Positions 9,056-31,542 of a DNA stretch of 32,000 bases are shown here, piece after piece. Origin of the DNA: Mycolicibacterium smegmatis. Lineage in GTDB: Bacteria > Actinomycetota > Actinomycetes > Mycobacteriales > Mycobacteriaceae. The position numbers and the translations under genes were made by a program. Position 1 is the stretch's first letter, and the number at the start of each line of letters is the position of its first letter. The stretch covers positions 4,920,001-4,952,000 of the forward strand of contig NZ_LN831039.1 in the NCBI RefSeq assembly GCF_001457595.1. The letters run 5' to 3'. The notes beneath the pieces are model-generated. The model had not been told where the DNA came from, ran no database searches, and worked only from the letters and a program-made list of their open reading frames with translations.

Positions 9056-9074
9056 ATGAGAACGTGCCTCTCAT
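9056..9074. promoter_or_regulatory. Operator-like dyad ATGAGAA-CGTGC-CTCTCAT (GAGAA-N5-TTCTC family, one arm mismatch)
   Basis: It lies 35 nt upstream of the P450-2 start, in the divergent gap shared with the EBP-like gene. It is related to the sites at 23722, 30522, 31322 and 31524. Confidence 0.45.
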
Positions 9075-9170
9075 TGTTGAGTATTACATTTCCACAGCGC
9101 CGCTTCGCCGTCAACGAGGGCAAACGCCTGATCGTTCCGCTCAACATGCCACATTCGGAAACGGGATTCT

Positions 9171-9198
9171 CCAATGTTGTGCATTCGCTCAACATTGG
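9171..9198. promoter_or_regulatory. Perfect 9-nt inverted repeat CCAATGTTG-N10-CAACATTGG
   Basis: It is seen directly in the sequence, about 57 nt upstream of ATG 9255. Related CTCAACA(T/A)TG copies occur at 9072-9081 (reverse orientation) and 9140-9149. The 10-mer CGCTCAACAT is repeated at 9138-9147 and 9186-9195. Confidence 0.4.
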
Positions 9199-9254
9199 CT
9201 GGTCGAACGCATATCGTCAGCTCAGTTGCCGCCGCGGCACGGACAGGACACGCC

Positions 9255-10034
9255 ATGACATCCGACATCGCGACACCGGCCCCGACCGCCGGCGAACCCG
9301 ACCTGGCCCGTCCCTGGGCACCGCACCGCCGCAAGGCCTACGTCGCCCTCACTGCGATGACCGGTTTCGCCTTCACGATCGCGGTCGTCGGGGTCGGCAC
9401 CGGTCTGCTGCCGCCCACCTTCACCGTCGACGTCATCGCCAACCTGGCGTTCGGCCTGCCGGTGATCGTGCTGCCGCTGGTCTACTTCTGGACCGGCCGG
9501 GGTGAGCAGCGCTCGCGTCTGCAACGCGCCTCGGAGCTGACGATGATCTACCTGCCCTACACCGCGGGCAGCCAACTCGGCTACGAGACCATCTTTCTGA
9601 TCGGCCATCCGATGAACTGGTGGACACCGACCACCGACCCGGGCTGGAAGTGGCTCTGGTGGCAGTACGGCCTGGCCGACACCCGCTACACCAGTGGCAA
9701 CGCCTGGATCTTCGGGCTGGAACTGGTCGGCGTGGTGACCGGCACGCTGCTGTTCATCGTGTGGATCCGCTTGATGCGCAGCGATTTACCGGTCGAGTCC
9801 CGGATCAAGAGCCTGTGGCTCGCCTTCACCGGATGCGCGATGCTGATCAGCAGCACCGCGGTGTACTTCCTGTCCGAGGTGCGCGCCGGGTTCGACGACA
9901 TCGGTCAGGGGGCCTTCGGGCTCTGGTTCAAATTCATCGCCGAGAACGTGCCGTTCATGATCCTGCCGTTCTTCGCCCTGATCGCGATGTATCGCCAGAT
10001 CGACCATCTCAGCCGCCGGGCAGGCCCTCGGTAG
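9255..10034 (+). CDS. Polytopic membrane protein resembling the EBP / EXPERA family (emopamil-binding protein, sterol delta8-delta7 isomerase-like), 259 aa
   Basis: It has several hydrophobic segments. LWWQYGLADTRY, GLELVG and YFLSEVRAGF...GLWFKF parallel human EBP LWKEYAKGDSRY, CMETIT and YFLTEHRDGF...LYFWFYF (human sequence recalled from memory). The start is uncertain (ATG 9255 preferred; 9174 possible). Confidence 0.7.
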   Translation: MTSDIATPAPTAGEPDLARPWAPHRRKAYVALTAMTGFAFTIAVVGVGTGLLPPTFTVDVIANLAFGLPVIVLPLVYFWTGRGEQRSRLQRASELTMIYLPYTAGSQLGYETIFLIGHPMNWWTPTTDPGWKWLWWQYGLADTRYTSGNAWIFGLELVGVVTGTLLFIVWIRLMRSDLPVESRIKSLWLAFTGCAMLISSTAVYFLSEVRAGFDDIGQGAFGLWFKFIAENVPFMILPFFALIAMYRQIDHLSRRAGPR

Positions 10035-10056
10035 CTCACACCGGGGTAGCTCACAC
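10030..10056 (+). repeat. Tandem direct repeat GGTAGCTCACAC x2 (15-nt period)
   Basis: Copies lie at 10030-10041 and 10045-10056. The first copy contains the TAG stop of the EBP-like gene. The repeat lies 65-90 nt upstream of the TetR-A start. Confidence 0.5.
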
Positions 10057-10120
10057 AGACCGACAGCGGCGGCTTGGTTGGACACTGGTCAGCTGTGCCG
10101 ATGCGCGGTACGGTGCGCAG

Positions 10121-10780
10121 GTGGTCGCATCACCGCGCAACACCGAAGCTGACCGGGGTCAGCGCCGGGCGACCTTCCAGCGCGCCAACTCCCACACCAC
10201 CAAGCAGATGCTGGTCCATGCGGCCATGGCGTTGTGGCGGACCAACGGCTACGCCAACACCACGGTGGCCGAGATCTGCCGGGGCGCCGGGGTCTCCAAG
10301 GCGTTGTTCTACTTCTACTTCCCGCGTAAGGAAGACGTGCTCTTCGAGGTGGGCGTGATGTCCACCCGCTCAGCCCAGCGCACCATCGCGAAGCTGCTGG
10401 CCGACGACTACGACGTCATGACCGTCGTCGGCGCCGCACTGACCGCCCTGGAACGCTCGATGAGCAGCAATCCGCGCGAGTTGGTCATCGAGACCATCCT
10501 GGAGGGGTACCGGCACGAGCACCGACTGCTGGCCACGGGAGAGAACCGTCCCGATCTGGACGGCGGCATGTTCACCACCCTGTTCGCCCGCGCGGTGGCC
10601 GACGGCAAACTTCCCGCCGGCACCGACACCGACCGCCTGGTCCATCTGGCCATGATGATGGTCAGCGAGGGCGCCCGGCATTGGGCCGCAGGCGCTTTCG
10701 GCGCCCGTTCCTTCGCCGACGTCGTCGCCTCCGACATCGCCACCCTGATCGCAGGCAGCACCGGACGAAGGAGACCGTGA
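10121..10780 (+). CDS. TetR/AcrR family transcriptional regulator (TetR-A), about 219 aa
   Basis: The HTH region is TKQMLVHAAMALWRTNGYANTTVAEICRGAGVSKALFYFYFPRKEDVL. GTG 10121 is the first start in frame that keeps helix 1, but the start is uncertain. The stop overlaps the next ATG (TGATG). Confidence 0.75.
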   Translation: MVASPRNTEADRGQRRATFQRANSHTTKQMLVHAAMALWRTNGYANTTVAEICRGAGVSKALFYFYFPRKEDVLFEVGVMSTRSAQRTIAKLLADDYDVMTVVGAALTALERSMSSNPRELVIETILEGYRHEHRLLATGENRPDLDGGMFTTLFARAVADGKLPAGTDTDRLVHLAMMMVSEGARHWAAGAFGARSFADVVASDIATLIAGSTGRRRP

Positions 10781-12081
10781 TGGCATGGGATTTCGAGACC
10801 GACCCGGAGTTCGCCGAACTCCTGGACTGGGTGGACACCTTCGTCCGCGACGAAGTCGAGCCGCTGGACCTGGTGTGGCCGCATCTGCAGTTCACGCCTC
10901 TGAACGAGGTACGCCGGCAGGTGGTGGACCCGCTCAAGGAGCAGGTGCGCCGAAAAGGCCTGTGGGCCACCCATCTCGGCCCCGAACTCGGTGGTCAGGG
11001 ATACGGGCAGCTGAAATTGGCGCTGCTCAACGAGATCCTGGGCCGGTCGCAGTGGGCGCCCATCGTGTTCGGCTGCCAGGCACCCGATACCGGCAACGCC
11101 GAGATCATCGCGCACTACGGCACCGAGGAGCAGAAGCAACGCTATCTGCGGCCCCTGCTCGACGGTGAGGTGTTCTCCTGTTATTCGATGACCGAGCCGC
11201 ACGCGGGCGCGGACCCGACGCTGTTCACCACGCGCGCCGTCCGCGACGGGGACGACTGGGTGATCAACGGCTGGAAGTTCTTCTCCTCCAACGCCGCCAC
11301 CGCGTCGTTCCTCATCGTCATGGTCGTCACCAACCCCGATGTCAGCGCCTATCAGGGCATGTCGATGTTCCTGGTGCCCACCGACACCCCCGGCGTCGAG
11401 ATCGTGCGCAACGTCGGCCTGTACGGCGAGCGCGACAACGAGGGATCGCACGCGCTGATCCACTACGACAACGTGCGGGTACCCGCCGAAGCTCTGCTGG
11501 GCGGTGAGGGGCAGGCGTTCGTCATCGCCCAGACCCGCTTGGGCGGCGGGCGAATCCACCACGCCATGCGCACGATCGGCCTCGCACGCAAGGCGCTCGA
11601 CATGATGTGCGAACGCGCGCTGAGCCGCAAGACACAGGGAAGCCGTCTGTCCGACAAGCAGTTCGTGCAGGGCTACATCGCCGACTCGTATGCGCAACTG
11701 CTGCAGTTCCGGCTGATGGTGCTCTACACCGCGTGGGAGATCGACAAGTACAACGACTACAAGTTGGTCCGCAAGGACATCGCCGCGGTCAAGGTCGTCA
11801 TGCCGACAGTCCTGCACGACATCGCATGGCGCGCGATGCAGGTGCACGGCGCCCTCGGTGTCACCAACGAAATGCCGTTTCTCGGGATGGTCACAGGCGC
11901 GGCCGTCATGGGCCTGGCCGACGGCCCCACCGAAGTGCACAAGACCACCGTGGCCAAGCAGGTGCTGCGCGACCACGAGGCCACCGAGGACACCTGGCCG
12001 ACCGAATGGATACCCCGCAAGCGCGAGGAGGCGCGGGCCAAACTCGCCGACTACCTGGACAACGAGGTGGGCAATCTGTGA
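10780..12081 (+). CDS. Acyl-CoA dehydrogenase family protein of the FadE2 / ACAD10-11 C-terminal-domain type, 433 aa
   Basis: It has MAWDFETDPEF..., SMTEPHAGADPT and TRLGGGRIHHAMR, which I recall as characteristic of this subfamily. It is translationally coupled on both sides. Confidence 0.88.
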   Translation: MAWDFETDPEFAELLDWVDTFVRDEVEPLDLVWPHLQFTPLNEVRRQVVDPLKEQVRRKGLWATHLGPELGGQGYGQLKLALLNEILGRSQWAPIVFGCQAPDTGNAEIIAHYGTEEQKQRYLRPLLDGEVFSCYSMTEPHAGADPTLFTTRAVRDGDDWVINGWKFFSSNAATASFLIVMVVTNPDVSAYQGMSMFLVPTDTPGVEIVRNVGLYGERDNEGSHALIHYDNVRVPAEALLGGEGQAFVIAQTRLGGGRIHHAMRTIGLARKALDMMCERALSRKTQGSRLSDKQFVQGYIADSYAQLLQFRLMVLYTAWEIDKYNDYKLVRKDIAAVKVVMPTVLHDIAWRAMQVHGALGVTNEMPFLGMVTGAAVMGLADGPTEVHKTTVAKQVLRDHEATEDTWPTEWIPRKREEARAKLADYLDNEVGNL

Positions 12082-13103
12082 GCGCACCGGACATCGACAC
12101 CCCGCGCCTCGCCGAGTGGATGGACGGCGCGGGGCTGCCGGGCAAGGGTGAGCCGCTGACCGCGCGCTTCCTGTCCGGCGGTACGCAGAACGTCATCTAC
12201 GAACTGCGCCGCGGCGACGAGCGCTGCGTGCTGCGCATGCCACCCCCGGGCGCGCCGCCCGACCGCGACAAGGGCATCCTGCGCGAGTGGCGCATCATCG
12301 CCGCGCTCGACGGCACCGACGTGCCGCACACCGAGGCCGTCGCCATGTGCGAGGACCCGAGCGTGCTCGGTCGGCCGTTCTACCTGATGGGGTTTGTCGA
12401 GGGGTGGTCCCCCATGGATCGGCACGGTGTGTGGCCCGAACCTTTCAACAGCGACCTGGGTACCCGCCCCGGCCTGAGTTATCAACTGGCCGAGGGCATC
12501 GCGCTGCTGTCCAAGGTCGACTGGCGCGAGCGGGGGCTGGCCGACCTGGGACGCCCCGAAGGTTTTCACGACCGGCAGGTCGATCGCTGGATCGCATTCC
12601 TCGAACGGATAAAACGCCGCGAGCTACCCGGCTTGAAGGTCGCCACCGACTGGCTGCGGGCGCACAAACCGCTCGACTACATCCCCGGCCTCATGCACGG
12701 CGACTACCAGTTCGCCAACGTGATGTACCGGCACGGCGCCCCCGCCACACTGGCCGCCATCGTCGACTGGGAGATGGGCACCGTCGGTGACCCCAAACTC
12801 GACCTCGCCTGGATGGTGCAGAGTTGGCCGACCGGCGAAGACACCGGCGGAATGGATTACGTCGACATGCGTGGCATGCCCGCACGTGACGACGTCGTCG
12901 CCCACTACGCCGAGGTGTCGGGCCGTCAGGTCGACGATCTGGACTACTACCTGGTGTTGGCCAAGTGGAAGCTCGCGATCGTGCTGGAGCAGGGTTTCCA
13001 GCGTGCGGGCGACGACGAGAAGCTTCTTGCGTTCGGACCGGTGGTGACAGGCCTGATGGCCTCGGCGGCCGAACTGGCCGAATCGACCGACTACCGGGGC
13101 TGA
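12078..13103 (+). CDS. Phosphotransferase (APH/choline-kinase fold) family protein of the ACAD10-11 N-terminal kinase type, 341 aa
   Basis: The GTG start overlaps the ACAD stop (GTGA). It has the catalytic loop LMHGDYQFANVMY (HGDxxxxN) and the metal-binding IVDWE. Confidence 0.87.
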   Translation: MSAPDIDTPRLAEWMDGAGLPGKGEPLTARFLSGGTQNVIYELRRGDERCVLRMPPPGAPPDRDKGILREWRIIAALDGTDVPHTEAVAMCEDPSVLGRPFYLMGFVEGWSPMDRHGVWPEPFNSDLGTRPGLSYQLAEGIALLSKVDWRERGLADLGRPEGFHDRQVDRWIAFLERIKRRELPGLKVATDWLRAHKPLDYIPGLMHGDYQFANVMYRHGAPATLAAIVDWEMGTVGDPKLDLAWMVQSWPTGEDTGGMDYVDMRGMPARDDVVAHYAEVSGRQVDDLDYYLVLAKWKLAIVLEQGFQRAGDDEKLLAFGPVVTGLMASAAELAESTDYRG

Positions 13104-13104
13104 C

Positions 13105-14079
13105 GTGCGCGCAGCCGTCTGCCCCCGGTACGGGCCACCCGAGGTAGTCCGCGTCGAGGAGTTGCCTGCGCCTGAACTCGGGCCCGATCAGGTGCGGGTG
13201 CGTGTCGGTGCTGCCGCGGTGAACTTTCCCGACGTGTTGCTCGTGGCCGACAGGTACCAGGTGACCGTGCCCGTGCCGTTCGTCCCTGGCAGTGAATTCT
13301 CCGGGGTGGTGACCGAGATCGCCGACGGTGTCACGGATTTCGTAGTCGGCGACCGGGTGGTCGGTACCGCAATGCACGGCGCGTTCGCCGAGGAGGTGTG
13401 TGTCGACGCATCCTGTCTGCAGCGCGCCGTCGAGCGCCTCGGCGACCGTGGCGCCGCCGCGTCCGGCGTCGCGCACCGCACCGCGTTCCACGCGCTGCGG
13501 TCGGTCGCCCGGGTCTCCACGGGCGACGACGTTGTCGTGCTTGGCGCGGGCGGCGGCGTCGGCCTGGCCGCGGTGCAGCTCGCCGCGGCACTCGGCGCCC
13601 GGGTGACCGCGGTGGCGTCGTCAACCGAAAAACTCGATGCCGCAGCACGATACGGTGCACACCACCTCGTCGACCACACAGCCGGTTCACTCCGCGCGGC
13701 ACTGCGCGACGCCGTTCCCGGAGGGGCCGACGCGGTGCTCGACCCGGTCGGCGGCGATCTCTCCGAACCCGCGTTGCGCGCGTTGCGCCGCGGCGGGCGG
13801 TTCGTCACCATCGGCTTCGCGTCAGGCGCCATCCCCCGGATACCACTGAACCTCGTGCTGGTGAAGGGCGTGCAGATCCTGGGCTTCGCGTTCCAGGACG
13901 TGCCGCCGGAGGAATTCGCGCGCAACGAATCCGAGCTCGGCGAACTGCTGGCGTCCGGCGCCGTGACGCCGCACATCGGTGCGGTCTATCCCCTCGCCGA
14001 GGTCGCTGCCGCGCTGCGGCATGTCGCCGAGGGACGCGCCGTGGGCAAGGTGGTCCTGGACGTCTCTGGCGTCCGATGA
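13105..14079 (+). CDS. MDR-superfamily NADPH:quinone oxidoreductase / enoyl reductase-like protein, 324 aa
   Basis: GTG start 1 nt after the upstream stop. It has VNFPDVL, PGSEFSGVV and the nucleotide motif VLGAGGGVGLAAVQLA. Confidence 0.87.
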   Translation: MRAAVCPRYGPPEVVRVEELPAPELGPDQVRVRVGAAAVNFPDVLLVADRYQVTVPVPFVPGSEFSGVVTEIADGVTDFVVGDRVVGTAMHGAFAEEVCVDASCLQRAVERLGDRGAAASGVAHRTAFHALRSVARVSTGDDVVVLGAGGGVGLAAVQLAAALGARVTAVASSTEKLDAAARYGAHHLVDHTAGSLRAALRDAVPGGADAVLDPVGGDLSEPALRALRRGGRFVTIGFASGAIPRIPLNLVLVKGVQILGFAFQDVPPEEFARNESELGELLASGAVTPHIGAVYPLAEVAAALRHVAEGRAVGKVVLDVSGVR

Positions 14080-14080
14080 G

Positions 14081-14108
14081 GTTTACAGTCGTCGCAGTGA
14101 GCGTAAAC
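14081..14108. promoter_or_regulatory. Operator-like dyad GTTTAC-N16-GTAAAC upstream of P450-3
   Basis: Six-nt inverted arms are separated by exactly 16 nt, and the spacer begins AGT as at 4813-4842. It lies directly after the stop of the MDR gene and about 100 nt upstream of ATG 14206. Confidence 0.4.
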
Positions 14109-14205
14109 TCACGCATCCTTGATCTGCGTCACCAGACCTGCTAAGCAAGTGCTCAGAACAAGACGGTCAGTTCAGAAAATGCCGCCCTTCGACGACGGAG
14201 TCCCG

Positions 14206-15396
14206 ATGGCCAAGCCCAGCACCAGTGCCACACCAGACCTGTACTACGACCCGTACAGCGTGCAGCTCAACATGGAACCGCACGAGGTGTTCGCGCGGAT
14301 CCGCGAAGAGGCGCCGCTGTACTACAACGAGCAGCACGACTTCTACGCGCTGAGCCGGTACCACGACGTCAACAAGGCCGTGATCGACCACGAGACGTTC
14401 ATCTCGGGCCGCGGCGCGCTGCTCGAGCTCATCAAGAGCGGCATGGAGATTCCGCCCGGCACCCTGATTTTCGAGGATCCGCCGATCCACAACATCCACC
14501 GCAACCTGCTGTCGCGGATGTTCACGCCGCGCAAGGTGCTCGCGCTCGAGCCCCAGATCCGCGAATTCACCACCCGCTGCCTGGACGCGGTGGCCGGCTC
14601 GGACACGTTCGACTTCGTCAACGATCTCGGCGAGCAGATGCCCATGCGCGTCATCGGCATGCTGCTGGGCATCCCCGAGGACCGCCAGCGCGCCATCACC
14701 GACCACGGCGAGCAGACGCTGCAGGGCACGACAGTCGATTCCCTGGCCACCGGTGAGGTGTTCGCGGAATTCATCGACTGGCGCGCCGAGAACCCGTCGG
14801 ACGACATCATGACCGACCTGCTCAACGCCGAGTTCGAGGACGAGACCGGCACGGTGCGCAAGCTGCGCCGAGACGAGTTGCTGCTGTACCTGACCGTGAT
14901 CGCCACCGCGGGTTCGGAAACCACGACGCGCGCGCTGGGCTGGGCGGGCAAGACGCTGGCCGACCACCCCGATCAGCGCCGCGACCTCGTCGAGAACCCG
15001 GCGCTGATCCCGCAGGCCATCGAGGAACTGCTGCGCTGGGAACCGCCTGCCCTGCAGATCGCCCGCTACGTCACGCGCGACGTCGAGTACTACGGCAAGA
15101 CCGTGCCCGCGGGGTCGGCGATGCTCATGCTGGTCGGGGCGGCCAACCGCGACCACAGGCGTTTCCCGCCGAACGGCGACGTGTTCGATATCCACCGGGA
15201 GCAGTTCTCGCACATGACTTTTGGTGCGGGCACGCACTTCTGCATGGGCAACGCGCTGGCCCGGCTCGAACTGCGTGTCGCACTCGAGGAAATACTCAAG
15301 CGCTTCCCCGAGTGGGAGGTCGACTGGGACAACGCCAGGCCCTCGGAGACCGCCGCGGTACGCGGCTGGGCGGCCATGCCAACGTTCGTGCGCTGA
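14206..15396 (+). CDS. Cytochrome P450 (P450-3, paralogue of P450-1), 396 aa
   Basis: GGAG lies 5 nt before ATG 14206; alternative starts are 14179 and 14119. It has the I-helix ATAGSETT, ExxR (ELLRWE) and the heme loop FGAGTHFCMGNALA. The N-terminus APLYYNEQHDFYALSRYHDV parallels P450-1 APLYYDSEQDFYALSRHEDV. Confidence 0.92.
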   Translation: MAKPSTSATPDLYYDPYSVQLNMEPHEVFARIREEAPLYYNEQHDFYALSRYHDVNKAVIDHETFISGRGALLELIKSGMEIPPGTLIFEDPPIHNIHRNLLSRMFTPRKVLALEPQIREFTTRCLDAVAGSDTFDFVNDLGEQMPMRVIGMLLGIPEDRQRAITDHGEQTLQGTTVDSLATGEVFAEFIDWRAENPSDDIMTDLLNAEFEDETGTVRKLRRDELLLYLTVIATAGSETTTRALGWAGKTLADHPDQRRDLVENPALIPQAIEELLRWEPPALQIARYVTRDVEYYGKTVPAGSAMLMLVGAANRDHRRFPPNGDVFDIHREQFSHMTFGAGTHFCMGNALARLELRVALEEILKRFPEWEVDWDNARPSETAAVRGWAAMPTFVR

Positions 15397-16527: not shown

Positions 16528-16541
16528 TGAACTCCTTCGTC

Positions 16542-16577
16542 CAAACCAACCTAGTGAACACACAGTAGGTTGGTTTG
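16542..16577. promoter_or_regulatory. Perfect 12-nt inverted repeat CAAACCAACCTA-N12-TAGGTTGGTTTG; candidate TetR-B operator and/or terminator of the upstream ACAD operon
   Basis: It is seen directly in the sequence and abuts the TetR-B ribosome-binding site. It lies about 67 nt downstream of the ACAD stop on the minus strand. A second 7-nt dyad, TGTGACA-N30-TGTCACA, is at 16583-16626. Confidence 0.5.
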
Positions 16578-16643
16578 CACGGTGTGACAAGGGTCTCAAC
16601 GGGAATAAATTCGGGCCTGTGTCACATAACGCACACCCGCAGG

Positions 16644-17792: not shown

Positions 17793-17804
17793 CAGCCGGC
17801 CCTC

Positions 17805-20969: not shown

Positions 20970-20985
20970 CGAAGCGAAGATCTCC

Positions 20986-22194: not shown

Positions 22195-22217
22195 GTGCTC
22201 CTGGTTCTCTTGTCGAT

Positions 22218-23513: not shown

Positions 23514-23700
23514 GACTGCTCTCCGTTCCGGCGAAGGGTTGCGGACTTCGACCATGCGGCACGGCGCACCGCACACGCTTCTCTCTGTCAGGAAACTATC
23601 TTCTCCATAGACGAGAATCAATGTCTGATGTCGCTGACGAGCATCTTCAGCCTGGTCACGCGCACACGCGAGCAGTTGCCATTGACCATCGGCCGAAAAG

Positions 23701-23740
23701 ATGGAAACCTGTTAGTCGTAAATGAGAACCTGATTCTCAT
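23701..23740. promoter_or_regulatory. Tandem operator-like sites: degenerate ATGGAAACCTGTTAGTCGT followed by the dyad ATGAGAA-CCTGA-TTCTCAT
   Basis: The 7-nt perfect arms are at 23722-23740. The adjacent 19-mer at 23701-23719 is 13/19 identical to it. An everted TTCTC-N7-GAGAA lies at 23601-23617. All are in the 281-nt divergent gap between the amidohydrolase operon and the CMD/Rieske operon. Confidence 0.5.
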
Positions 23741-23794: not shown

Positions 23795-24325
23795 GTGCGC
23801 CTGACCCCATTGCCCGCCGACGAGTGGGACGACGAGGTACGACTGGCGCTGTCGGTGATGCTGCCCGAGGAGCGACTGAACCCCGAGGGCGCGGGCACCG
23901 CGTTGTCCACGCTGGCCCGCCATCCGCGGCTCACCAAGGCGTTCCTGCGGTTCAGCAACCACCTGCTGTTCCGCTCCACCCTCGACCCACGCCTGCGCGA
24001 GCTCGCGATCCTGCGTATCGCGCGCAGGCGCAACTGCGAGTACGAGTGGGCCCACCACGCGTTCATCGGCAAGGCCGAGGGCCTCACCGACGACGACATC
24101 GACGGCATCGGCCGTGGCGTGGTGTCCGACCCCTTCGACCAGGTCGTGATCGACGCCGTCGACGAACTCGACGAACTGTCCACGATCTCGGACCCCACGT
24201 GGGCCGCGCTCGGCGAGAAACTCGACGACCGCCAGCGCATGGACCTGGTCTTCACCGTCGGCGGCTACGGCCTCATGGCCATGGCCTACAACACCTTTGG
24301 CATCGAACCGGAATCCGGCCACTGA
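23795..24325 (+). CDS. Carboxymuconolactone decarboxylase (AhpD-like) family protein, 176 aa
   Basis: GTG start with GAGAGGAGAG upstream. It has the core RRNCEYEWAHH. Confidence 0.78.
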   Translation: MRLTPLPADEWDDEVRLALSVMLPEERLNPEGAGTALSTLARHPRLTKAFLRFSNHLLFRSTLDPRLRELAILRIARRRNCEYEWAHHAFIGKAEGLTDDDIDGIGRGVVSDPFDQVVIDAVDELDELSTISDPTWAALGEKLDDRQRMDLVFTVGGYGLMAMAYNTFGIEPESGH

Positions 24326-24360
24326 GCCCTGAACGGCTCGACAGAGAAAGTAGGTAGAAA

Positions 24361-25704
24361 GTGGCGCATTTCCCGAAACCAGCTGTCGGCAGCTGGACCG
24401 AGAACTGGCCCGAACTGGGCACCGCCCCTGTGGATTACACCGACTCCATCGACCCGGAGCAGTGGAAACTGGAGCAGCAGGCCATCTTCCGCAGGACCTG
24501 GCTGCATGTGGGTCGTGTGGAGCGCCTGCCCAAGACCGGGAGCTACTTCACCCGCGAGATGCCATCGGTGGGCAAGGGCACGTCGATCATCGTCGTCAAG
24601 GACAAAGACGGTGCCGTGCGGGCGTTCTACAACATGTGCCGGCACCGCGGCAACAAGCTCGTGTGGAACGACTACCCCGGCGAAGAGGTCTCCGGTACGT
24701 GCAGGCAGTTCACGTGCAAGTACCACGCGTGGCGCTACGCGCTCAACGGTGACCTGACGTTCATCCAGCAGGAGGACGAGTTCTTCGACGTCGACAAGGC
24801 CGACTACCCGCTCAAGCCCGTGCGGTGCGAGATCTGGGAAGGGTTCATCTTCGTCAACTTCGACGACGACGCCATGCCGCTCGAGGAGTACCTCGGCGAG
24901 TTCGGGCAGGGCCTCAAAGGTTATCCGTTCCACGAGATGACCGAGGTGTACAGCTACCGCGCCGAGATCAACTCGAACTGGAAGCTCTTCATCGACGCGT
25001 TCGTCGAGTTCTACCACGCCCCGATCCTGCACATGAAGCAGGCGACGCCCGAAGAGGCCGCCAAGCTGGCCAAGATCGGCTTCGAGGCGCTGCACTACGA
25101 CATCAAGGGCGACCACTCGATGATCTCGTCCTGGGGCGGCATGAGCCCGCCGAAGGACCTCAACATGGTCAAGCCGATCGAGCGCATCCTGCACAGCGGT
25201 CTGTTCGGCCCGTGGGACCGTCCCGACATCAAGGGCATCCTGCCCGACGAGTTGCCGCCCGCGGTCAACCCGGCCCGTCAGCCCACGTGGGGCCAGGACA
25301 GCTTCGAGTTCTTCCCCAACTTCACTCTGCTGCTGTGGGTTCCGGGCTGGTATCTGACCTACAACTACTGGCCGACCGACGTCGACAAGCACATCTTCGA
25401 GTGCAACCTGTACTTCGTCCCGCCGAAGAACACCCGTCAGCGGCTCGCGCAGGAACTCGCGGCCGTGACGTTCAAGGAGTACGCGCTGCAGGACGCAAAC
25501 ACGCTGGAGGCCACGCAGACGCAGATCAACACGCGCGCGGTGACCGAGTTCCCGCTGTGCGACCAGGAGGTGCTGCTGCGCCACCTGCACCACACGGCGC
25601 ACAAGTACGTCGATGCCTACAAGGCCGAACTGGCGGAGAAAACCCAGAAGGCCGAGTCCAACGGGTCGGCCGTCACGAGCGAGAAGGACGCCGCGCATGT
25701 CTGA
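24361..25704 (+). CDS. Rieske [2Fe-2S] non-heme-iron oxygenase, alpha (catalytic) subunit, 447 aa
   Basis: The Rieske ligands are CRH...CKYHAW. The mononuclear-iron region is NWKLFIDAFVEFYHAPILH. Confidence 0.9.
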   Translation: MAHFPKPAVGSWTENWPELGTAPVDYTDSIDPEQWKLEQQAIFRRTWLHVGRVERLPKTGSYFTREMPSVGKGTSIIVVKDKDGAVRAFYNMCRHRGNKLVWNDYPGEEVSGTCRQFTCKYHAWRYALNGDLTFIQQEDEFFDVDKADYPLKPVRCEIWEGFIFVNFDDDAMPLEEYLGEFGQGLKGYPFHEMTEVYSYRAEINSNWKLFIDAFVEFYHAPILHMKQATPEEAAKLAKIGFEALHYDIKGDHSMISSWGGMSPPKDLNMVKPIERILHSGLFGPWDRPDIKGILPDELPPAVNPARQPTWGQDSFEFFPNFTLLLWVPGWYLTYNYWPTDVDKHIFECNLYFVPPKNTRQRLAQELAAVTFKEYALQDANTLEATQTQINTRAVTEFPLCDQEVLLRHLHHTAHKYVDAYKAELAEKTQKAESNGSAVTSEKDAAHV

Positions 25705-26044
25705 CACCACCACAGAACGCCTGCTGCCCGAGGAGTTCGCCTACCTCGAGCGGTTCTCCGACTGGATCCTGCCGACCGAACCCGAGCGCTACGCCAAGCG
25801 GCTGTCGTCGTCGATGGAGGAGATGCAGGAGCTCTACGACGTCGGGATGGCCCGCCTCGAGGAGGTCATGACCTACCTCGACGCGCGATTCCCGTTGCAC
25901 GGCATGCCCGATGACGCCAAGCGCCTCATGCACCTCATGCAGTCGGTGGTGATGGTGAGCTTCCCGGTCGAGGTGTGGAAGCAGCCGCGTGTCCTCGACA
26001 GCGGGGCCGCGTGGGTCGAGATCGTCAGGGAGCCGGTGGTGTAA
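25697..26044 (+). CDS. Hypothetical 115-aa protein, translationally coupled to the Rieske oxygenase
   Basis: The ATG lies 8 nt inside the oxygenase gene (ATGTCTGA). Codon usage is native-looking. I recognise no domain (MSDTTTERLLPEEFAYLERFSDWILPTEPERY...). Confidence 0.6.
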   Translation: MSDTTTERLLPEEFAYLERFSDWILPTEPERYAKRLSSSMEEMQELYDVGMARLEEVMTYLDARFPLHGMPDDAKRLMHLMQSVVMVSFPVEVWKQPRVLDSGAAWVEIVREPVV

Positions 26045-26046
26045 GG

Positions 26047-27267
26047 GTGCTGACCCTCAAAGCTGCGGGTCTCGTCGACGTCGACACCGGGGAACTCATC
26101 CGCCCCGGTGTCGTGCGCGTCGAGGGCGACCGCATAGTCGGCATCGGCGGCCCGGCCGAAGGCGAGGTCATCGACCTCGGGGATGCCATCCTGCTGCCCG
26201 GCCTGATGGACATGGAGGTCAACCTCCTCATGGGCGGGCGCGGTGAGAATCCCGGGCTGTCGCAGGTACAGGACGATCCCCCCACCCGTGTGCTGCGCGC
26301 CGTGGGCAACGCGCGCCGCACGCTGCGGGCCGGTTTCACCACCGTGCGCAACCTCGGCCTGTTCGTCAAGACCGGCGGTTACCTGCTGGATGTCGCGCTG
26401 GGCAAGGCGATCGACGCGGGGTGGATCGACGGACCGCGCGTGATCCCGGCAGGCCACGCGATCACCCCGACCGGTGGACACCTGGATCCCACGATGTTCG
26501 CCGCGTTCATGCCCGGCGTGCTGGAACTGACCGTCGAGGAGGGCATCGCCAACGGCGTCGACGAGATCCGCAAGGCCGTGCGCTACCAGATCAAGCACGG
26601 CGCACAGCTGATCAAGGTGTGCTGTTCGGGCGGTGTGATGTCACTGACCGGAGAGGCCGGGGCACAACACTATTCGGACGAAGAGCTGCGTGTCATCGTC
26701 GACGAGGCACACCGGCGCGGGTTGCGGGTCGCCGCACACACGCACGGCGCCGAGGCCGTCAAACACGCGATCGACTGCGGCATCGACTGCATCGAACACG
26801 GCTTCCTCATGGACGACGAGGCCATCGAGATGATGGTGGCGCACGACCGGTTCCTGGTGTCGACGCGTCGGCTCGCCGAGTACATGGACGTCTCCAAGGC
26901 GCCACCGGAGCTTCAGGCCAAGGCCGCCGAGATGTTCCCCAAGGCGCGCACGTCGATCAAGGCCGCGTACGAGGCCGGCGTCAAGATCGCTATCGGCACC
27001 GACGCCCCGGCCATCCCCCACGGCCGCAACGCCGACGAACTGGTCACGCTGGTGCAGTGGGGCCTGCCGCCTGCGGCCGTGCTGAAAGCGGCCACCGTGA
27101 CCGCGGCCGAGTTGATCAACGTGACCGACCGCGGCCGCCTCGCCGAAGGCCTGCTGGCCGACATCATCGCGGTGCCGGGCAACCCGCTGGAAGACATCAG
27201 CGTTACACAAAACGTAGACTTTGTAATGAAAGGCGGTAAGGTCTTCCGCAATGACAAAGCCAACTGA
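26047..27267 (+). CDS. Amidohydrolase-superfamily protein (imidazolonepropionase/prolidase-related TIM barrel) with a non-canonical first metal motif, 406 aa
   Basis: GTG start 2 nt after the upstream stop. It has LLPGLMDMEVNL (ExN where HxH is expected), LIKVCCSGG, AAHTHG, IEHG and IGTDAP. Confidence 0.87.
   Translation: MLTLKAAGLVDVDTGELIRPGVVRVEGDRIVGIGGPAEGEVIDLGDAILLPGLMDMEVNLLMGGRGENPGLSQVQDDPPTRVLRAVGNARRTLRAGFTTVRNLGLFVKTGGYLLDVALGKAIDAGWIDGPRVIPAGHAITPTGGHLDPTMFAAFMPGVLELTVEEGIANGVDEIRKAVRYQIKHGAQLIKVCCSGGVMSLTGEAGAQHYSDEELRVIVDEAHRRGLRVAAHTHGAEAVKHAIDCGIDCIEHGFLMDDEAIEMMVAHDRFLVSTRRLAEYMDVSKAPPELQAKAAEMFPKARTSIKAAYEAGVKIAIGTDAPAIPHGRNADELVTLVQWGLPPAAVLKAATVTAAELINVTDRGRLAEGLLADIIAVPGNPLEDISVTQNVDFVMKGGKVFRNDKAN
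27200..27228. promoter_or_regulatory. Operator-like dyad GCGTTAC-N16-GTAATG embedded in the 3' end of the amidohydrolase gene
   Basis: The left arm is the same 7-mer and the spacing the same 16 nt as at 4813-4842. One position of the right arm differs (GTAAT vs GTAAC). It lies 22 nt upstream of ATG 27251, in a locally AT-rich coding tail. Confidence 0.35.
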
Positions 27268-27694
27268 CGCCCCGACACGCACCGAGGATCTCGTCGAGAT
27301 CCAGCAGTTGCTCGCGAAGTATGCGGTCACCATCACCCAGGGCGACATCGACGGTCTGATAAGCGTTTTCACGCCCGACGGCACCTACAGCGCGTTCGGC
27401 GAGACGTACACCCTCAACCGGTTCCCGGTGCTCGTCGACGCAGCGCCCAAGGGCCTGTTCATGACCGGCACGGCGCTCGTGGACCTGGTGCAGGGCGCTG
27501 ATACCGCCACCGGGACCCAGCCACTGTGCTTCATCGAGCACTCCACGCACGACATGCGCATCGGCTACTACCGCGACACGTATGAGCGCACGGCCGACGG
27601 CTGGCGCCTGAAAACCCGTTCCATGACGTTCATCCGGCGTAACGGCGACCACGACCACGGCCGTCCGCACGCCATCGGCAGGCCGGAAGCTTAG
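27251..27694 (+). CDS. SnoaL-like / NTF2-fold protein, 147 aa
   Basis: It has EDLVEIQQLLAKYAVTITQGDIDGLISVFTPDGTY...YRDTYERTADGWRLKTR. The start overlaps the upstream gene by 17 nt. Confidence 0.75.
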   Translation: MTKPTDAPTRTEDLVEIQQLLAKYAVTITQGDIDGLISVFTPDGTYSAFGETYTLNRFPVLVDAAPKGLFMTGTALVDLVQGADTATGTQPLCFIEHSTHDMRIGYYRDTYERTADGWRLKTRSMTFIRRNGDHDHGRPHAIGRPEA

Positions 27695-28816
27695 ATGACC
27701 GAACTCCACGACCCCACCGCATTCCGCACGGCGCTGCAGGACTGGCTGGGCCGGACCGACCTCACGCCACCCGAGGACCATTCGCTCGAAGCGCACATGA
27801 CCCAGTTCCGCCGGGTACAGCGCGCGCTGTACGACGCAGACTTCGGTCGCTACGGCTGGCCCGAGACCGCCGGTGGGCTGGGTGGCCCGGACGTGCTGCG
27901 CGCCATCGTCGGCGAAGAGATCGTGGGCCGGCGATTGGCCGAACCCGGTCCGTGGTCGATGCTGGAGGTGCTCGCGCCGACCATGATCGACTACGCCCAC
28001 CCCGAACTCGCCGCCGAGATGGTGCCGAAGCTGCTGCGCGGCGACGAACAGTGGTGCCAAGGGTTTTCCGAACCCGGAGCGGGCAGCGACCTCGCCTCGA
28101 TCACCACGCGCGCCACCCAGAAGGGTGACAAGTGGATCATCAACGGCCAGAAGGTGTGGACGAGCTTCGCGCAGTTCTCGCAACGGTGCATCCTGCTGAC
28201 CCGCACCGGGGACGCAGGCACCCCGAACCACCAGGCGATCACGGCGTTCTTCGTCGACCTCGACACACCCGGCATCACCGTGCGGCCGTTGCGCACCATG
28301 CACGACGTCGACGAATTCTGCGAGGTGTACTTCGACGACGTCGAGGTCGACGCGGGCCGCATGCTCGGAAACCCCGGCCAGGGTTGGCAACTCGCGATGG
28401 CCCTGCTGCCGTACGAGCGCTCGACATGCTTCTGGCAGCGCATCGCGTACCTGTACTCGCGGTTCGACGCGCTCATCGAGGCCGTCAAACGCCAGGGCCA
28501 GGTCGTCGATTCGGATCTGGGCGAGGTCTACCTGGCCCTGCACACCGTGCGCTGCCGGTCGGCGGCCACACAGCGCAGACTCGCCGAGGGGCACAAGCTG
28601 GGTCCGGACACCTCGATCGACAAGGTGCTGCTGGCCAACGCCGAACAACTGCTCTACGACACGGCCCGCAATCTGTTGCCCGGCGTGATCGAACTCGAGG
28701 ATTCCGAATGGCGCACCGAGTACCTGTACTCGCGCGCGGCCACGATCTACGGCGGTACCGCCGAGGTGCAGCGCAACATCATCGCGCACCGCCTACTGGA
28801 CCTCCCGAAGGGATGA
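27695..28816 (+). CDS. Acyl-CoA dehydrogenase, large (alpha-type) subunit of a probable heteromeric ACAD, 373 aa
   Basis: The ATG lies directly after the upstream TAG. It has FSEPGAGSDLAS, NGQKVWTSFA and IYGGTAEVQRNII. Confidence 0.87.
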   Translation: MTELHDPTAFRTALQDWLGRTDLTPPEDHSLEAHMTQFRRVQRALYDADFGRYGWPETAGGLGGPDVLRAIVGEEIVGRRLAEPGPWSMLEVLAPTMIDYAHPELAAEMVPKLLRGDEQWCQGFSEPGAGSDLASITTRATQKGDKWIINGQKVWTSFAQFSQRCILLTRTGDAGTPNHQAITAFFVDLDTPGITVRPLRTMHDVDEFCEVYFDDVEVDAGRMLGNPGQGWQLAMALLPYERSTCFWQRIAYLYSRFDALIEAVKRQGQVVDSDLGEVYLALHTVRCRSAATQRRLAEGHKLGPDTSIDKVLLANAEQLLYDTARNLLPGVIELEDSEWRTEYLYSRAATIYGGTAEVQRNIIAHRLLDLPKG

Positions 28817-29628
28817 CGGACATGGACGCCGAATCGCTAGGCCTGCTGGAAGAGACGCTGCGCAAGACCATGCTGTCGGCGTCCGGCGCGAAGCTCGACG
28901 CCGCGCTGGCCGAACTGGGCTGGGCCGAGATGCTCAGCGACATGCCCGAGGTCGCCATGCCGCTGGTGTTCCGGCTGCTGGGCGAAACCGGTTCACACGC
29001 CTCGGTTCTCAACGACGTGCTGCTGGAGACCATCGGCGGGCTGCCGGGCGGCACTCCGCCGATGCCGTATGCGGGTGGTGGCTGGGTCGTGTGGGAGCGC
29101 AGAGACAGCACGGACAGCGCAGACAGCGCCAACCCCACGTTGGGCGGGCTGCCGCTGCGCAAGGTGCCTGACGGGCAACTGCTGCGGATCTCGGAGGCCC
29201 GCAGGGCCCTGGGCTGGTGGCTCGTCGGCTCGGCACGCGCGATGCTGGCGCTGGCGCGTCAGCACGCGATGGACCGCGTGCAGTTCGGCGCGCCGATCGC
29301 GACGTTCCAGGCCGTGCGTCACCGGCTCGCCGAGACGCTCGTGGCCATCGAGGGCGCCGAGGCGACCCTGAGCCAGCCCAACGCCGACAACGTCGACCTC
29401 ACCTCGCTTTTGGCCAAGGCCGCCGCGGGCAAGGCCGCGCTGACCGCGGCCAGGCACTGCCAGCAGGTGCTGGGCGGCATCGGTTTCACCGCAGAACACG
29501 AGTTGCACACCCACGTCGAGCGGGTGCTGGTGCTCGACGGATTGCTGGGCAACGCACGCGAACTCACGCGCAAGGCCGGATCGGGTATGCGCGCCAGGGG
29601 CACCGCGCCGCGCATGGCGCAGGTCTAG
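28813..29628 (+). CDS. Acyl-CoA dehydrogenase-like small (beta-type) subunit, 271 aa
   Basis: The ATG overlaps the upstream stop (ATGA). It has a C-terminal ACAD helical domain (RVQFGAPIATFQAVRHRLAE...GGIGFTAEHELH) and a short N-terminal part. Confidence 0.8.
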   Translation: MTDMDAESLGLLEETLRKTMLSASGAKLDAALAELGWAEMLSDMPEVAMPLVFRLLGETGSHASVLNDVLLETIGGLPGGTPPMPYAGGGWVVWERRDSTDSADSANPTLGGLPLRKVPDGQLLRISEARRALGWWLVGSARAMLALARQHAMDRVQFGAPIATFQAVRHRLAETLVAIEGAEATLSQPNADNVDLTSLLAKAAAGKAALTAARHCQQVLGGIGFTAEHELHTHVERVLVLDGLLGNARELTRKAGSGMRARGTAPRMAQV

Positions 29629-29640
29629 CTTCACGCCGCA

Positions 29641-29659: not shown

Positions 29660-30481
29660 CTACTTGATGTTGGCCTTCATTTCCTCGATGTCGACCAGCA
29701 CCGGCCAACCGCTGACGCTCAGCGCGTTGCCGTGCCCGGTCTGGTGGATGTCGAAGACCGATTGGATGGCCGCGTAGAAGCCCTGCACGTCGAGTGTCTG
29801 GTTCACGGCCCGCTTGGCCTGGCGCAGTGCGAACGGCGGCATCGTGGCGATCTGTTCGGCCAGCTCGCGGGTCTGCGCGTCGAGTTCGTCACGCGCGACG
29901 ACGCGGTTGACCATGCCGGTGCGCTCGGCCTCCTCCGCCGTCAGCGCGCGCCCGGTGAACAAAATCTCCTTGGCCTTGCGCGGGCCGAGTTCCCACGTGT
30001 GACCGTGGTATTCGACGCCACCGATGCCCATGAGCGCCACCGGGTCGGAGAACAGCGCGTCGTCGGACGCCAGGATCAGATCACACGGCCAGCACAGCAG
30101 CAGACCACCCGAGATGCAGCGCCCCTGGACGGCCGCGATCGACGGCTTGGGCACGTTGCGCCAGCGCAGCGTGTAGTCGAGATAGCGCCTGGCCTCGTGC
30201 TGGATGATGAATTCCAGTGAGATCTTCTCGGGCACTTCACCACCGCCACGCAGATCGTGCCCGGCGGAGAAGTGCTTTCCGTTGGCCCGCAGAATGATGA
30301 CCTTGACCTCGTTGTCCTCGGCGGCCCTGGTCCAGGCCGCGTCGAGTTCGTCGAGCAGTTCGGGGTTCTGCGCGTTGGCGGCCTCGGGGCGGTTGAGCGT
30401 GATGGTCGCGATCGAGTCGGCGACGCCGTAGTCGATGTACACGTGGGTCCCTTCGGGGCGCCGGATGCAGGACGGGTGCAT
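29660..30481 (-). CDS. Crotonase-superfamily (enoyl-CoA hydratase/isomerase family) protein, 273 aa
   Basis: It has IATITLNRPEAANA, HFSAGHDL and AAVQGRCISGGLLLCWPCDLILASDDALFSDPV. The start is ATG 30481, with an alternative GTG at 30442. Confidence 0.88.
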   Translation of the reverse strand: MHPSCIRRPEGTHVYIDYGVADSIATITLNRPEAANAQNPELLDELDAAWTRAAEDNEVKVIILRANGKHFSAGHDLRGGGEVPEKISLEFIIQHEARRYLDYTLRWRNVPKPSIAAVQGRCISGGLLLCWPCDLILASDDALFSDPVALMGIGGVEYHGHTWELGPRKAKEILFTGRALTAEEAERTGMVNRVVARDELDAQTRELAEQIATMPPFALRQAKRAVNQTLDVQGFYAAIQSVFDIHQTGHGNALSVSGWPVLVDIEEMKANIK

Positions 30482-30521: not shown

Positions 30522-30540
30522 CCGAGAATACTATTCTCGG
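30522..30540. promoter_or_regulatory. Perfect 9+9-nt palindrome CCGAGAATA-C-TATTCTCGG (GAGAA-N5-TTCTC family); candidate TetR-C autoregulatory operator
   Basis: It is centred in the 113-nt divergent gap between the crotonase gene and TetR-C. Confidence 0.6.
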
Positions 30541-30594
30541 TATACGAAAGTTACAATCTCCGACACGTTGGCCGCGAGGGGGTCTGGGACCACT

Positions 30595-31323
30595 ATGGCA
30601 AGGCGTTCTCCGGTACAGTCGATCCATGCTCTCCCGACTCGACAAGCATCTGAGCCGTCCGTGACCAGCGCCGGCGAAGAACCCGCATGGAAGCAGCGGG
30701 CGGTCGAGCGGTCGATCAAAACCGCGAAGTTGCGCGCCGCCCAGCGAGTACAGCGCTTCCTGGACGCCGCCCAGGCGATCATCATCGAAAAAGGCAGCAC
30801 CGACTTCACGGTGCAGGAGGTCGTCGACCGCTCCCGGCAGTCACTGCGCAGCTTCTACCTGCAGTTCGACGGTAAGCACGAACTGCTGCTCGCACTCTTC
30901 GAGGACGCGCTGAGCCGCTCTGCCGACCAGATCCGCGCCGCGACCGCGAGCCATTCGGACCCATTGGAACGTCTCAAAGTGGCCATCCAGCTGCTGTTCG
31001 AGTCGTCCCGGCCGGATCCGGCCGCCAAGCGGCCGCTGTTCACCGACTTCGCACCGCGCCTTCTGGTGTCCCATCCGTCCGAGGTCAAAGTCGCGCACGC
31101 GCCGCTGCTGGCCCTGCTCACCGAGTTGATGGAAGAGGCGGGCGAGGCCGGCCTCCTCCGCGAGGGCATCAACCCGAAGCGCATGGCCGCGATGACGATG
31201 CAGACCGTCATGTTCGTCGCGCAGTCGAGTGGCGGGGCCGACGAGTCCACGCCCAATCCCATCACGGCCGACGAGGTCTGGGACTTCGTCGCGCACGGCT
31301 TCTCAGCCGATCCGCCCGCCTGA
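30595..31323 (+). CDS. TetR/AcrR family transcriptional regulator (TetR-C), 242 aa (251 aa if TTG 30568 is used)
   Basis: The HTH region is RFLDAAQAIIIEKGSTDFTVQEVVDRSRQSLRSFYLQFDGKHELL. It has a long N-terminal extension. Confidence 0.85.
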   Translation: MARRSPVQSIHALPTRQASEPSVTSAGEEPAWKQRAVERSIKTAKLRAAQRVQRFLDAAQAIIIEKGSTDFTVQEVVDRSRQSLRSFYLQFDGKHELLLALFEDALSRSADQIRAATASHSDPLERLKVAIQLLFESSRPDPAAKRPLFTDFAPRLLVSHPSEVKVAHAPLLALLTELMEEAGEAGLLREGINPKRMAAMTMQTVMFVAQSSGGADESTPNPITADEVWDFVAHGFSADPPA

Positions 31324-31336
31324 GAACCACGTTCTC
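31322..31336. promoter_or_regulatory. Perfect dyad GAGAAC-CAC-GTTCTC overlapping the TetR-C stop codon
   Basis: It is seen directly in the sequence and has the same GAGAA-N5-TTCTC architecture as the other sites. Confidence 0.5.
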
Positions 31337-31463
31337 CGCGCGTCAGAAGCCATTACTCCTTGGGCGTGATGCCGGTCACGGGAATGGTTTCTCCGACCGA
31401 TCCCTTTCCGCCGCCCGCACAATTTCGACAACGCATGTTGCCATTCTTTTCTGTTGTGCAGTC

Positions 31464-31480
31464 GCTCAGCATTGCTGAGC
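31464..31480 (+). terminator. Small hairpin GCTCAGC-att-GCTGAGC followed by a T-rich tract
   Basis: A 7-bp stem with a 3-nt loop is followed by atgTGTTGTG. It lies 140 nt downstream of the TetR-C stop. It is a weak terminator candidate. Confidence 0.3.
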
Positions 31481-31523
31481 ATGTGTTGTGAAGCGTCCGT
31501 TTCGCTGCTCTGGACAGCGATGC

Positions 31524-31542
31524 ATGAGAACCTGATTCTTGC
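31524..31542. promoter_or_regulatory. Operator-like site ATGAGAACCTGATTCTTGC (GAGAA-N5-TTCTT)
   Basis: Its first 16 nt are identical to 23722-23737. It lies 132 nt upstream of the SDR start at 31674. Confidence 0.45.

Follow-up and report, generated by a model that had tools for sequence, protein, structure and literature searches.

A 15-bp inverted repeat, GAGAA-N5-TTCTC, recurs in a 32-kb stretch of Mycolicibacterium smegmatis DNA (NZ_LN831039.1, positions 4,920,001–4,952,000; hereafter the window, numbered from its first letter) that encodes three TetR-family proteins, here called TetR-A, TetR-B and TetR-C. Our analysis indicates that the dyad is probably the operator of TetR-C, and that a TetR-C dimer bound at seven such sites would silence the neighbouring transcription units until a metabolite releases it. 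Both the sequence and the position of the sites are conserved in a comparison of about 85 genomes.

The dyad and its seven sites

Three exact matches to the dyad, GAGAANNNNNTTCTC (GAGAAN5TTCTC), occur in the window, at 23724, 30524 and 31322, and three further sites, at 536, 9058 and 31526, each differ from it by one mismatch. By chance, as judged from 100 dinucleotide-preserving shuffles, exact matches average 0.00 and matches allowing up to one mismatch 0.44, and none of the shuffles reached either observed count (3 and 6). By a weight matrix built from orthologous sites, six window sites score at least 15, against 0.02 expected; the same scan found no site in the 9 kb downstream of the window. 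Together with a degenerate copy at 23591, the sites number seven (O1 to O7), and all lie within the 4.9% of the window (1,568 bp by our best gene map) that is non-coding. The original prediction had listed five copies, with coordinates and sequences that proved correct in every case, and had placed all of them in non-coding gaps or across a stop codon; that placement extends to the full set, to which O1 and O3 are the additions. The orthologous sites give the consensus tGAGAAY-N3-RTTCTCa, which at the candidate autoregulatory site, O5, lengthens to GAGAATA-N-TATTCTC.

O5 (30524–30538, GAGAATACTATTCTC; exact match) lies between TetR-C and a divergent crotonase gene, inside a perfect 19-bp palindrome, CCGAGAATACTATTCTCGG, composed of CCGAGAATA-C-TATTCTCGG; the 9+9 palindrome described earlier is thus more precisely 9+1+9. 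It stands upstream of the crotonase by 42 bp if the long start (30481) is used, or by 81 bp from the short start (30442). The top-scoring match in the window is O4 (23724–23738, GAGAACCTGATTCTC; exact match, score 29.7), 56 bp from the start of the gene for a CMD-family protein. In the same gap, the degenerate O3 (23591–23605, GGAAACTATCTTCTC; GAGAAGATAGTTTCC when read on the minus strand) has as its counterpart in most other species GAAAACTAGCTTCTC or GAAAACTATCTTCTC, with matrix scores of 12–23 in the other species where it was detected. O2 (9058–9072, GAGAACGTGCCTCTC; one mismatch, score 17.6) is 36 bp from the ATG of the cytochrome P450 gene P450-2 (9021, minus strand). O1 (536–550, GATAACGTGATTCTC; one mismatch, score 15.0) starts in the TGA stop codon of a ferredoxin gene (535–537), 34 bp before a DUF35/thiolase-like gene.

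The last two sites lie downstream of TetR-C. O6 (31322–31336, GAGAACCACGTTCTC; exact match, score 17.9) starts in the TetR-C stop codon (TGA, 31321–31323), an overlap already noted in the original prediction. O7 (31526–31540, GAGAACCTGATTCTT; one mismatch, score 22.6) is 204 bp from O6 and 133 bp from the start of a short-chain dehydrogenase (SDR) gene. At O1 and O6, the extended motif (TGAGAAC and TGATAAC) opens with the TGA of the upstream gene, so that the end of a coding sequence and the operator overlap. Between O6 and O7, at 31464–31480, a terminator-like hairpin, GCTCAGCATTGCTGAGC, is followed by a T-rich tail.

Conservation of the sites and the likely binder

We sampled the best 80 loci orthologous to TetR-C, together with as much as 10 kb of flank either way (1.54 Mb in total), and counted matches with at most one mismatch. 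Five orthologous non-coding positions hold 314 of the 330 hits. A site 70–72 bp upstream of the TetR-C start is present in every locus (80 hits, 80/80), and it keeps its position where an acyl-CoA dehydrogenase gene replaces the divergent crotonase or where no crotonase was detected. In the gap between the CMD and amidohydrolase operons, the main site (O4) gives 72 hits in 72 of the 80 loci, with an exact match in all 72, and the second site (O3, GAAAAYTAKCTTCTC) gives 39 hits in 39. The TetR-C stop codon (O6) contributes 53 hits in 45 loci, and the region farther downstream, before an SDR or P450 gene (the O7 side), 70 hits in 69. Elsewhere there are 16 hits, all with one mismatch and spread over 15 loci, where the shuffle rate predicts about 21; outside the orthologous promoter positions, therefore, the motif is at background. 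Fifteen of the 80 loci end short of 10 kb upstream, which explains at least some of the absent upstream sites. The motif is thus conserved at orthologous promoters, in fast- and slow-growing species alike, when orthologous gaps are footprinted as the original prediction had proposed. No member of the M. tuberculosis complex is among the best 80 loci or the best 120 protein clusters; no dedicated search for that complex was made.

The two operators farthest upstream were followed in loci that contain their genes. P450-2 is named CYP150 in the source annotations of relatives, and the CYP150 orthologues found in M. goodii, M. branderi, M. thermoresistibile and M. angelicum all have a site about 25–30 bp upstream of the annotated start (4/4), conserved despite differing upstream neighbours among these loci. 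O1 has an equivalent in both loci that contain the start of the DUF35-thiolase gene (2/2; M. goodii, L084, and M. angelicum, L087).

A dyad of this kind need not bind a protein: it could be a chance repeat, a small mobile or repetitive extragenic palindrome (REP)-like repeat, or part of a shared promoter element. Copies of a repeat would show what is seen at O4 and O7, which share the identical 16-mer ATGAGAACCTGATTCT (23722–23737 and 31524–31539), as the original prediction had correctly reported. We find this explanation hardly credible, since the counts are far above chance, orthologous positions are kept across the genomes compared, and site alignments show conserved arms around three variable central bases, with unrelated flanks. 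No RNA family in Rfam matches the window. The dyad does not keep one position with respect to the -10 and -35 elements of the various promoters, which argues that it is not itself a promoter element.

As to which protein occupies the dyad, the comparative data make TetR-C the probable candidate. The TetR-C gene (30595–31323, plus strand) encodes 242 amino acids with a TetR-type helix-turn-helix (PF00440, E = 2.2e-7, 31.0 bits against a cut-off of 24); the same domain is precomputed for all 120 homologues listed, and the exact protein is annotated in Mycolicibacterium smegmatis. Identity is 84–94% across fast- and slow-growing Mycolicibacterium and Mycobacterium, and residues 29–108, comprising the DNA-binding domain and a preceding basic helix, are nearly all invariant. 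An AlphaFold2 model is all-helical, with ten helices (predicted local distance difference test, pLDDT, 72.5; predicted template-modelling score, pTM, 0.64). Foldseek returned 267 matches at E ≤ 0.001, and all 50 of those listed are TetR-family or putative TetR-family proteins (target-normalised template-modelling score up to 0.82). By sequence and fold, the nearest solved relatives include acyl-CoA-responsive FadR proteins, EthR2, YvdT, AibR and KstR2. A comparison of the recognition helix with those of solved TetR proteins gave no clue to DNA specificity.

TetR-C also has an N-terminal extension of roughly 50 residues (30595–30750 encodes residues 1–55). Residues 1–29 are predicted to be disordered, and residues 30–55 form an invariant, strongly basic helix, EPAWKQRAVERSIKTAKLRAAQRVQRF, that is continuous with helix 1. 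We speculate that this helix might contribute further contacts with DNA; the T and A conserved on either side of the dyad would be consistent with that.

Alternatively, the dyad could be a genuine operator whose binder is TetR-A, TetR-B or a factor encoded elsewhere, TetR-C being merely one of its targets. The assignment of the binder is comparative, the island holds two further TetR genes, and TetR-B directly follows the operon headed by O3. Against this, each of the other two TetR genes is associated with different repeats. TetR-B (16527–15913, minus strand) opens a two-gene unit (16527–15410) and has its own palindrome, AACCAACCTAcTGTGTGTTCAcTAGGTTGGTT, conserved in four species; TetR-A (10121–10780, plus strand) has other repeats upstream. 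Moreover, the strongest palindrome, which is also the best conserved, keeps a constant distance from TetR-C in all sampled loci, whatever the neighbouring genes. This is the usual signature of TetR autoregulation. We therefore regard a different binder as unlikely. The fixed site upstream of TetR-C, taken with the different repeats upstream of TetR-A and TetR-B, points instead to TetR-C as an autoregulated repressor, in support of the original choice of TetR-C as the most likely binder.

The palindrome AACCAACCTAcTGTGTGTTCAcTAGGTTGGTT is a long one, at 16538–16581 in the 116-bp gap before TetR-B. M. goodii, M. branderi and M. angelicum have almost the same sequence, which differs from the GAGAAY dyad and probably serves TetR-B as its own operator. 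TetR-A, which is hidden within the mechanically called open reading frame 9620–10780, heads an operon (10121–15396) with genes for an acyl-CoA dehydrogenase, an APH-type kinase, a zinc alcohol dehydrogenase and P450-3. Upstream of it, at 10030–10056, GGTAGCTCACAC occurs twice as a tandem direct repeat, and the M. goodii counterpart is a palindrome, GCGACACCAGGACGTGGTGTCGC (GCGACACCA...TGGTGTCGC; L084, about 9886–9908). TetR-A and TetR-B are each about 20% identical to TetR-C. The M. goodii TetR beside CYP150 was considered as a TetR-C paralogue and rejected: it is 22% identical to TetR-C and is the TetR-A orthologue (65% identical).

We found no GAGAAY site beside the TetR-A operon or the TetR-B pair, and the P450-1 unit (4889–6291) has no site of its own. 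The original prediction of a single regulator for the locus thus stands for most units, with a reach extended to position 536, and fails for the TetR-A and TetR-B modules; judged by sequence, a single regulator is supported for the greater part of the locus but not for the whole. A further part of that prediction placed the site at 9058 before both the P450-2 operon and an EBP-like gene (9255–10034). The first half is upheld by the conserved CYP150 site. The second is doubtful: the EBP-like gene is probably not a target, as it is absent from the equivalent position in M. goodii, M. branderi and M. angelicum and has a different inverted repeat nearer to it. That repeat (CCAATGTTGTGC / GCTCAACATTGG) lies at 9171–9198, 57 bp before the gene, whose 259-residue product shows a weak match to EXPERA/EBP (PF05241, E = 0.0079, 17 bits) that falls below the cut-off.

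Promoter layout and the proposed repression

The position of each operator relative to conserved promoter-like blocks suggests how TetR-C might act. At the TetR-C promoter, an alignment of 14 species shows an invariant TACAAT 13 nucleotides (nt) past O5 (30552–30557) and a conserved GAGGGGG ribosome-binding site before the ATG, with no conservation farther upstream of the operator. Measured from this invariant -10, O5 covers the -35 position. O5, TACAAT and the ribosome-binding site all remain with TetR-C where its upstream neighbour is a different gene. The gap between the CMD and amidohydrolase operons is 281 bp long, and in an alignment of 15 species O4 directly follows a conserved TTGACC-N14-TGGAAA block. 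On the amidohydrolase side, reading the minus strand, TTGATT (23621 to 23616), a 17-nt spacer and TAGTTT (23598 to 23593) are nearly invariant, as are GAAAAYTAKCTTCTC and the adjoining GAGAATCAA. O3 (23605 to 23591 on this strand) overlaps the predicted -10 TAGTTT. In most species it departs from the consensus in the same way, from which we infer a constraint imposed by the need for a working -10. With O3 and O4 separate, each of the divergent operons has its own operator; the site at 23724, to which the original prediction had assigned both, is retained for the CMD operon, while the amidohydrolase operon is served by O3.

O2 orthologues also directly follow a conserved TTGACS...TGGAAA block in four species. 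The CMD promoter region (23682–23711) and that of CYP150 (9080–9110, minus strand; about 9910–9960 in L084–L087) are laid out alike, with TTGACS, 14–15 nt, TGGAAA, 15 nt and then the operator. Neither has a canonical TANNNT -10 at the expected distance, which may point to a -10 of unusual sequence or to an alternative sigma factor.

At the SDR gene, the picture differs between species. In slow growers, the O7 orthologue exactly fills the 17-bp spacer of TTGCCG-17-TAATAT; in M. smegmatis, that -10 is degenerate. A second, strongly conserved block, TTGACA-18-CAGAGT (31579–31608), lies 39 bp downstream of O7. It falls in a leader (31566–31612) in which AAACGAGTCTGTCGTTGACACC...GGTGACAGAGTGC is conserved in 11 fast- and slow-growing species, TTGACAC and GTGACAGAGT being invariant; this block may act as a second promoter or bind another factor. 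Overall, the operator positions fit repression by promoter occlusion, with the SDR promoter of M. smegmatis ambiguous.

The SDR and stop-codon sites raise the alternative that TetR-C binds the dyad without being a simple repressor everywhere, and acts there as an activator, a roadblock or a looping partner. The distance from O7 to the conserved TTGACA, the 204-bp separation of O6 and O7, and the location of O1 and O6 at the 3′ ends of upstream genes would all suit such a role. We nevertheless hold it to be distinctly improbable. The slow-grower O7 orthologue occupies a repressor position within its promoter, TetR-family activators are rare, and O6 may be a leftover, its counterpart preceding a thioesterase or P450 gene elsewhere.

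In the simple repression that we favour, a TetR-C dimer would bind the seven operators, at or next to core promoters, and thereby keep about seven units silent: TetR-C itself with the divergent crotonase, the CMD/Rieske, six-gene amidohydrolase, CYP150 and DUF35-thiolase operons, and the downstream SDR. A pathway metabolite, most likely a coenzyme A (CoA) thioester, would bind the C-terminal domain and release TetR-C, so that oxygenases and beta-oxidation-type enzymes would be induced together.

Published RNA sequencing of M. smegmatis (PMC4881515) offers weak evidence on expression. In those data MSMEG_4814, 4816, 4835, 4842 and 4846, which represent four predicted units, read 0 in androstenedione and 8–20 units in cholesterol, where housekeeping genes read in the hundreds. 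The same study lists MSMEG_4835–4843 among the clusters that are cholesterol-induced relative to androstenedione; its counts are low, and one of its two cholesterol comparisons scored 1,852 genes as up-regulated. The pattern fits a tightly repressed, co-varying set.

Several observations weigh against repression by TetR-C as set out above. The link between TetR-C and the dyad is drawn from comparative evidence, and the comparative data all come from Mycobacteriaceae with conserved synteny, in which co-occurrence of regulator and motif is inseparable from shared ancestry. The structural model of TetR-C is of only moderate confidence (pLDDT as above), and the acyl-CoA ligand is a guess by analogy, from fold neighbours and target functions. 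At the promoters, a generic sigma-70 scan of four intergenic stretches found no canonical promoter, so the promoter positions given here are read from conservation only. O7 lies about 80 bp upstream of the start implied by TTGACA-18-CAGAGT, which is atypical for a repressor. Finally, O6 has no gene after it in M. smegmatis. Its orthologues in many species precede an acyl-CoA thioesterase or P450 gene that is absent here.

Related regulators and the catabolic island

The closest parallel is KstR (Rv3574/MSMEG_6042), which represses cholesterol and lipid catabolism in mycobacteria. It is a conserved TetR protein that controls its own gene, and its motif was obtained by footprinting its promoter and then scanning for the motif (Kendall et al. 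2007, PMC1995591). Like KstR, TetR-C is a highly conserved protein of this type, autoregulation having been shown for the former and proposed for the latter. In both cases a short palindrome recurs at the promoters of P450, acyl-CoA dehydrogenase, crotonase and thiolase genes, and the KstR half-site TAGAAC resembles GAGAAY. The route of discovery can be called the same, save that the dyad described here is known from sequence comparison. The two differ in geometry: the KstR core, TnnAACnnGTTnnA, is 14 bp long with two central bases, whereas the dyad is 15 bp long with three bases between AAY and RTT. No match to TnnAACnnGTTnnA occurs in the window. The targets differ as well, with a Rieske oxygenase, a CMD-family protein, two amidohydrolases and the CYP150 P450 here and known steroid genes for KstR. 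TetR-C was rejected as a KstR orthologue, since KstR chains in the PDB match it only at E = 0.005–0.007 and over the DNA-binding domain. The KstR2 operator, AnCAAGnnCTTGnT, has no convincing match in the window: the single hit carries one mismatch and lies inside a gene, where 0.26 were expected.

FadR of Bacillus subtilis, B. halodurans and Thermus thermophilus is among the closest solved structures to TetR-C in sequence and fold. These TetR repressors control beta-oxidation genes and come off the DNA in response to acyl-CoA; they are only 15–22% identical to TetR-C, which differs further in its N-terminal extension of roughly 50 residues with an invariant basic helix. TetR-C is not a FadR equivalog by NCBIfam NF053878 (26.8 bits against a cut-off of 200). 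The classical TetR operator is a 15-bp palindrome with an odd centre (PMC4482099), and the dyad resembles it in length and centre, in its proposed binding of one dimer and in overlapping a divergent promoter region that includes the regulator gene. The two operator sequences are unrelated, and tetO serves one efflux gene where the dyad forms seven dispersed operators at catabolic operons.

Other mycobacterial regulators were considered and set aside. MftR (MSMEG_1420) is a TetR repressor of mycofactocin genes that is released by long-chain acyl-CoA, and its operator, T-N2-GGCA-N5-TGCC-N2-A, lies upstream of mftA within a 27-bp footprint (PMC8728441). The dyad is unrelated to it in sequence and lies at a different locus, TetR-C being divergent from a crotonase or acyl-CoA dehydrogenase gene and not from mftA. 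The published motif of Rv0158, the GC-rich YGGCGGBGMCGGCGG, is likewise unrelated, and fadE5, the gene that FdmR is described as controlling, lies outside this locus. Rv0674, considered as a possible M. tuberculosis counterpart of TetR-C, found no support in the papers that mention it and was dropped. We found no publication on TetR-C or the dyad in the searchable literature, whose coverage leaves out most subscription journals, and a search for the exact site strings gave one irrelevant match only. MSMEG_4847, which is probably TetR-C by locus-tag numbering, is missing from the supplements of a survey of TetR regulators in mycobacteria (PMC4482099) that takes M. tuberculosis genes as its starting point.

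Positions in strain mc2155, for which coordinates are given in the supplement of PMC4881515, convert to window positions by subtraction of 4,911,674; MSMEG_4814 thus corresponds to 585–2240, MSMEG_4835 to an SDR gene at 20211–20969, MSMEG_4842 to an amidohydrolase gene at 26047–27267 and MSMEG_4846 to the crotonase. Gene calls were taken from locus L081, which is 99.6% identical to the window. The G+C content of the window is 66.8%. By Pfam and NCBIfam, its proteins form a dense island of lipid-catabolism type. The oxygenases are three P450s with small ferredoxins, a Rieske oxygenase and a luciferase-like monooxygenase; the CoA-type genes encode acyl-CoA dehydrogenases, a thiolase, a family III CoA-transferase and a crotonase; and there are also a DUF35/thiolase-like lipid-transfer protein, short-chain dehydrogenases, a CMD-family protein, two amidohydrolases and the three TetR genes.

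The predicted target units, with assignments from Pfam, are as follows in the order of the window. The DUF35/thiolase unit (585–4748, plus strand) comprises MSMEG_4814, an alpha/beta hydrolase gene (MSMEG_4815) and two 3-hydroxyisobutyrate-dehydrogenase-like genes, and P450-1 (4889–6091) may be co-transcribed with it. The CYP150 unit (6299–9021, minus strand) consists of P450-2 (7744–9021), a small ferredoxin, a DUF1330 protein and a luciferase-like monooxygenase, in a gene order identical to that of M. goodii. The six-gene operon (16644–23513, minus strand) encodes amidohydrolase-2, whose start is that annotated in L081, an acyl-CoA dehydrogenase, an SDR (MSMEG_4835), a family III CoA-transferase, a thiolase and a second acyl-CoA dehydrogenase. 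The CMD/Rieske operon (23795–29628, plus strand) encodes the CMD-family protein, the Rieske oxygenase alpha subunit, a 115-residue protein, amidohydrolase-1 (MSMEG_4842), a SnoaL-like protein and two acyl-CoA dehydrogenase subunits. The crotonase gene (MSMEG_4846; 29660–30481, minus strand; Pfam and NCBIfam), divergent from TetR-C, is probably co-regulated through O5. The SDR gene downstream of TetR-C (31674–32000, plus strand) is cut by the end of the window; the full gene, of 281 amino acids, is present in L081.

Mycobacteria have dozens of TetR regulators, few of them with a known operator or regulon. TetR-C and GAGAAY-N3-RTTCTC could represent a further large, unrecognised regulon for lipid, terpenoid or steroid-like catabolism alongside KstR and KstR2, a suggestion that we make tentatively. 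If it is right, CYP150, the Rieske oxygenase, the SDR earlier labelled as mycofactocin-type and two beta-oxidation-type operons would be tied to one substrate, and seemingly unrelated oxygenases (CYP150, Rieske and luciferase-like) would join beta-oxidation-type enzymes in a single pathway. The analysis itself supplies a candidate operator, a candidate repressor and a predicted target set of about 30 genes in a tractable model organism, where genes now almost silent should be activated once the repressor is lost, revealing the pathway substrate. The central spacing, three bases as against two for KstR, could separate two regulons with similar half-sites. In other respects, TetR autoregulation with dispersed operators in a catabolic island is routine, and this case is notable for the conservation of its regulator.

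In many species TetR-C has neighbours that M. smegmatis lacks at this place. Within about 1.3 kb upstream and 3 kb downstream of the gene, as seen in loci L013, L014, L017 and L061, there are a 391–402-residue acyl-CoA dehydrogenase encoded divergently, an acyl-CoA thioesterase and a 400-residue P450 encoded downstream, and motif sites in the preceding gaps. The M. smegmatis arrangement looks like a reduced version of this one. In M. angelicum (L087, 13202–13216), a motif match, TTGAGATTGGGATTCTCGT (score 16.6), lies within the annotated 5′ end of an HSP70-like gene, and may mark either a further target or a mis-called start codon.

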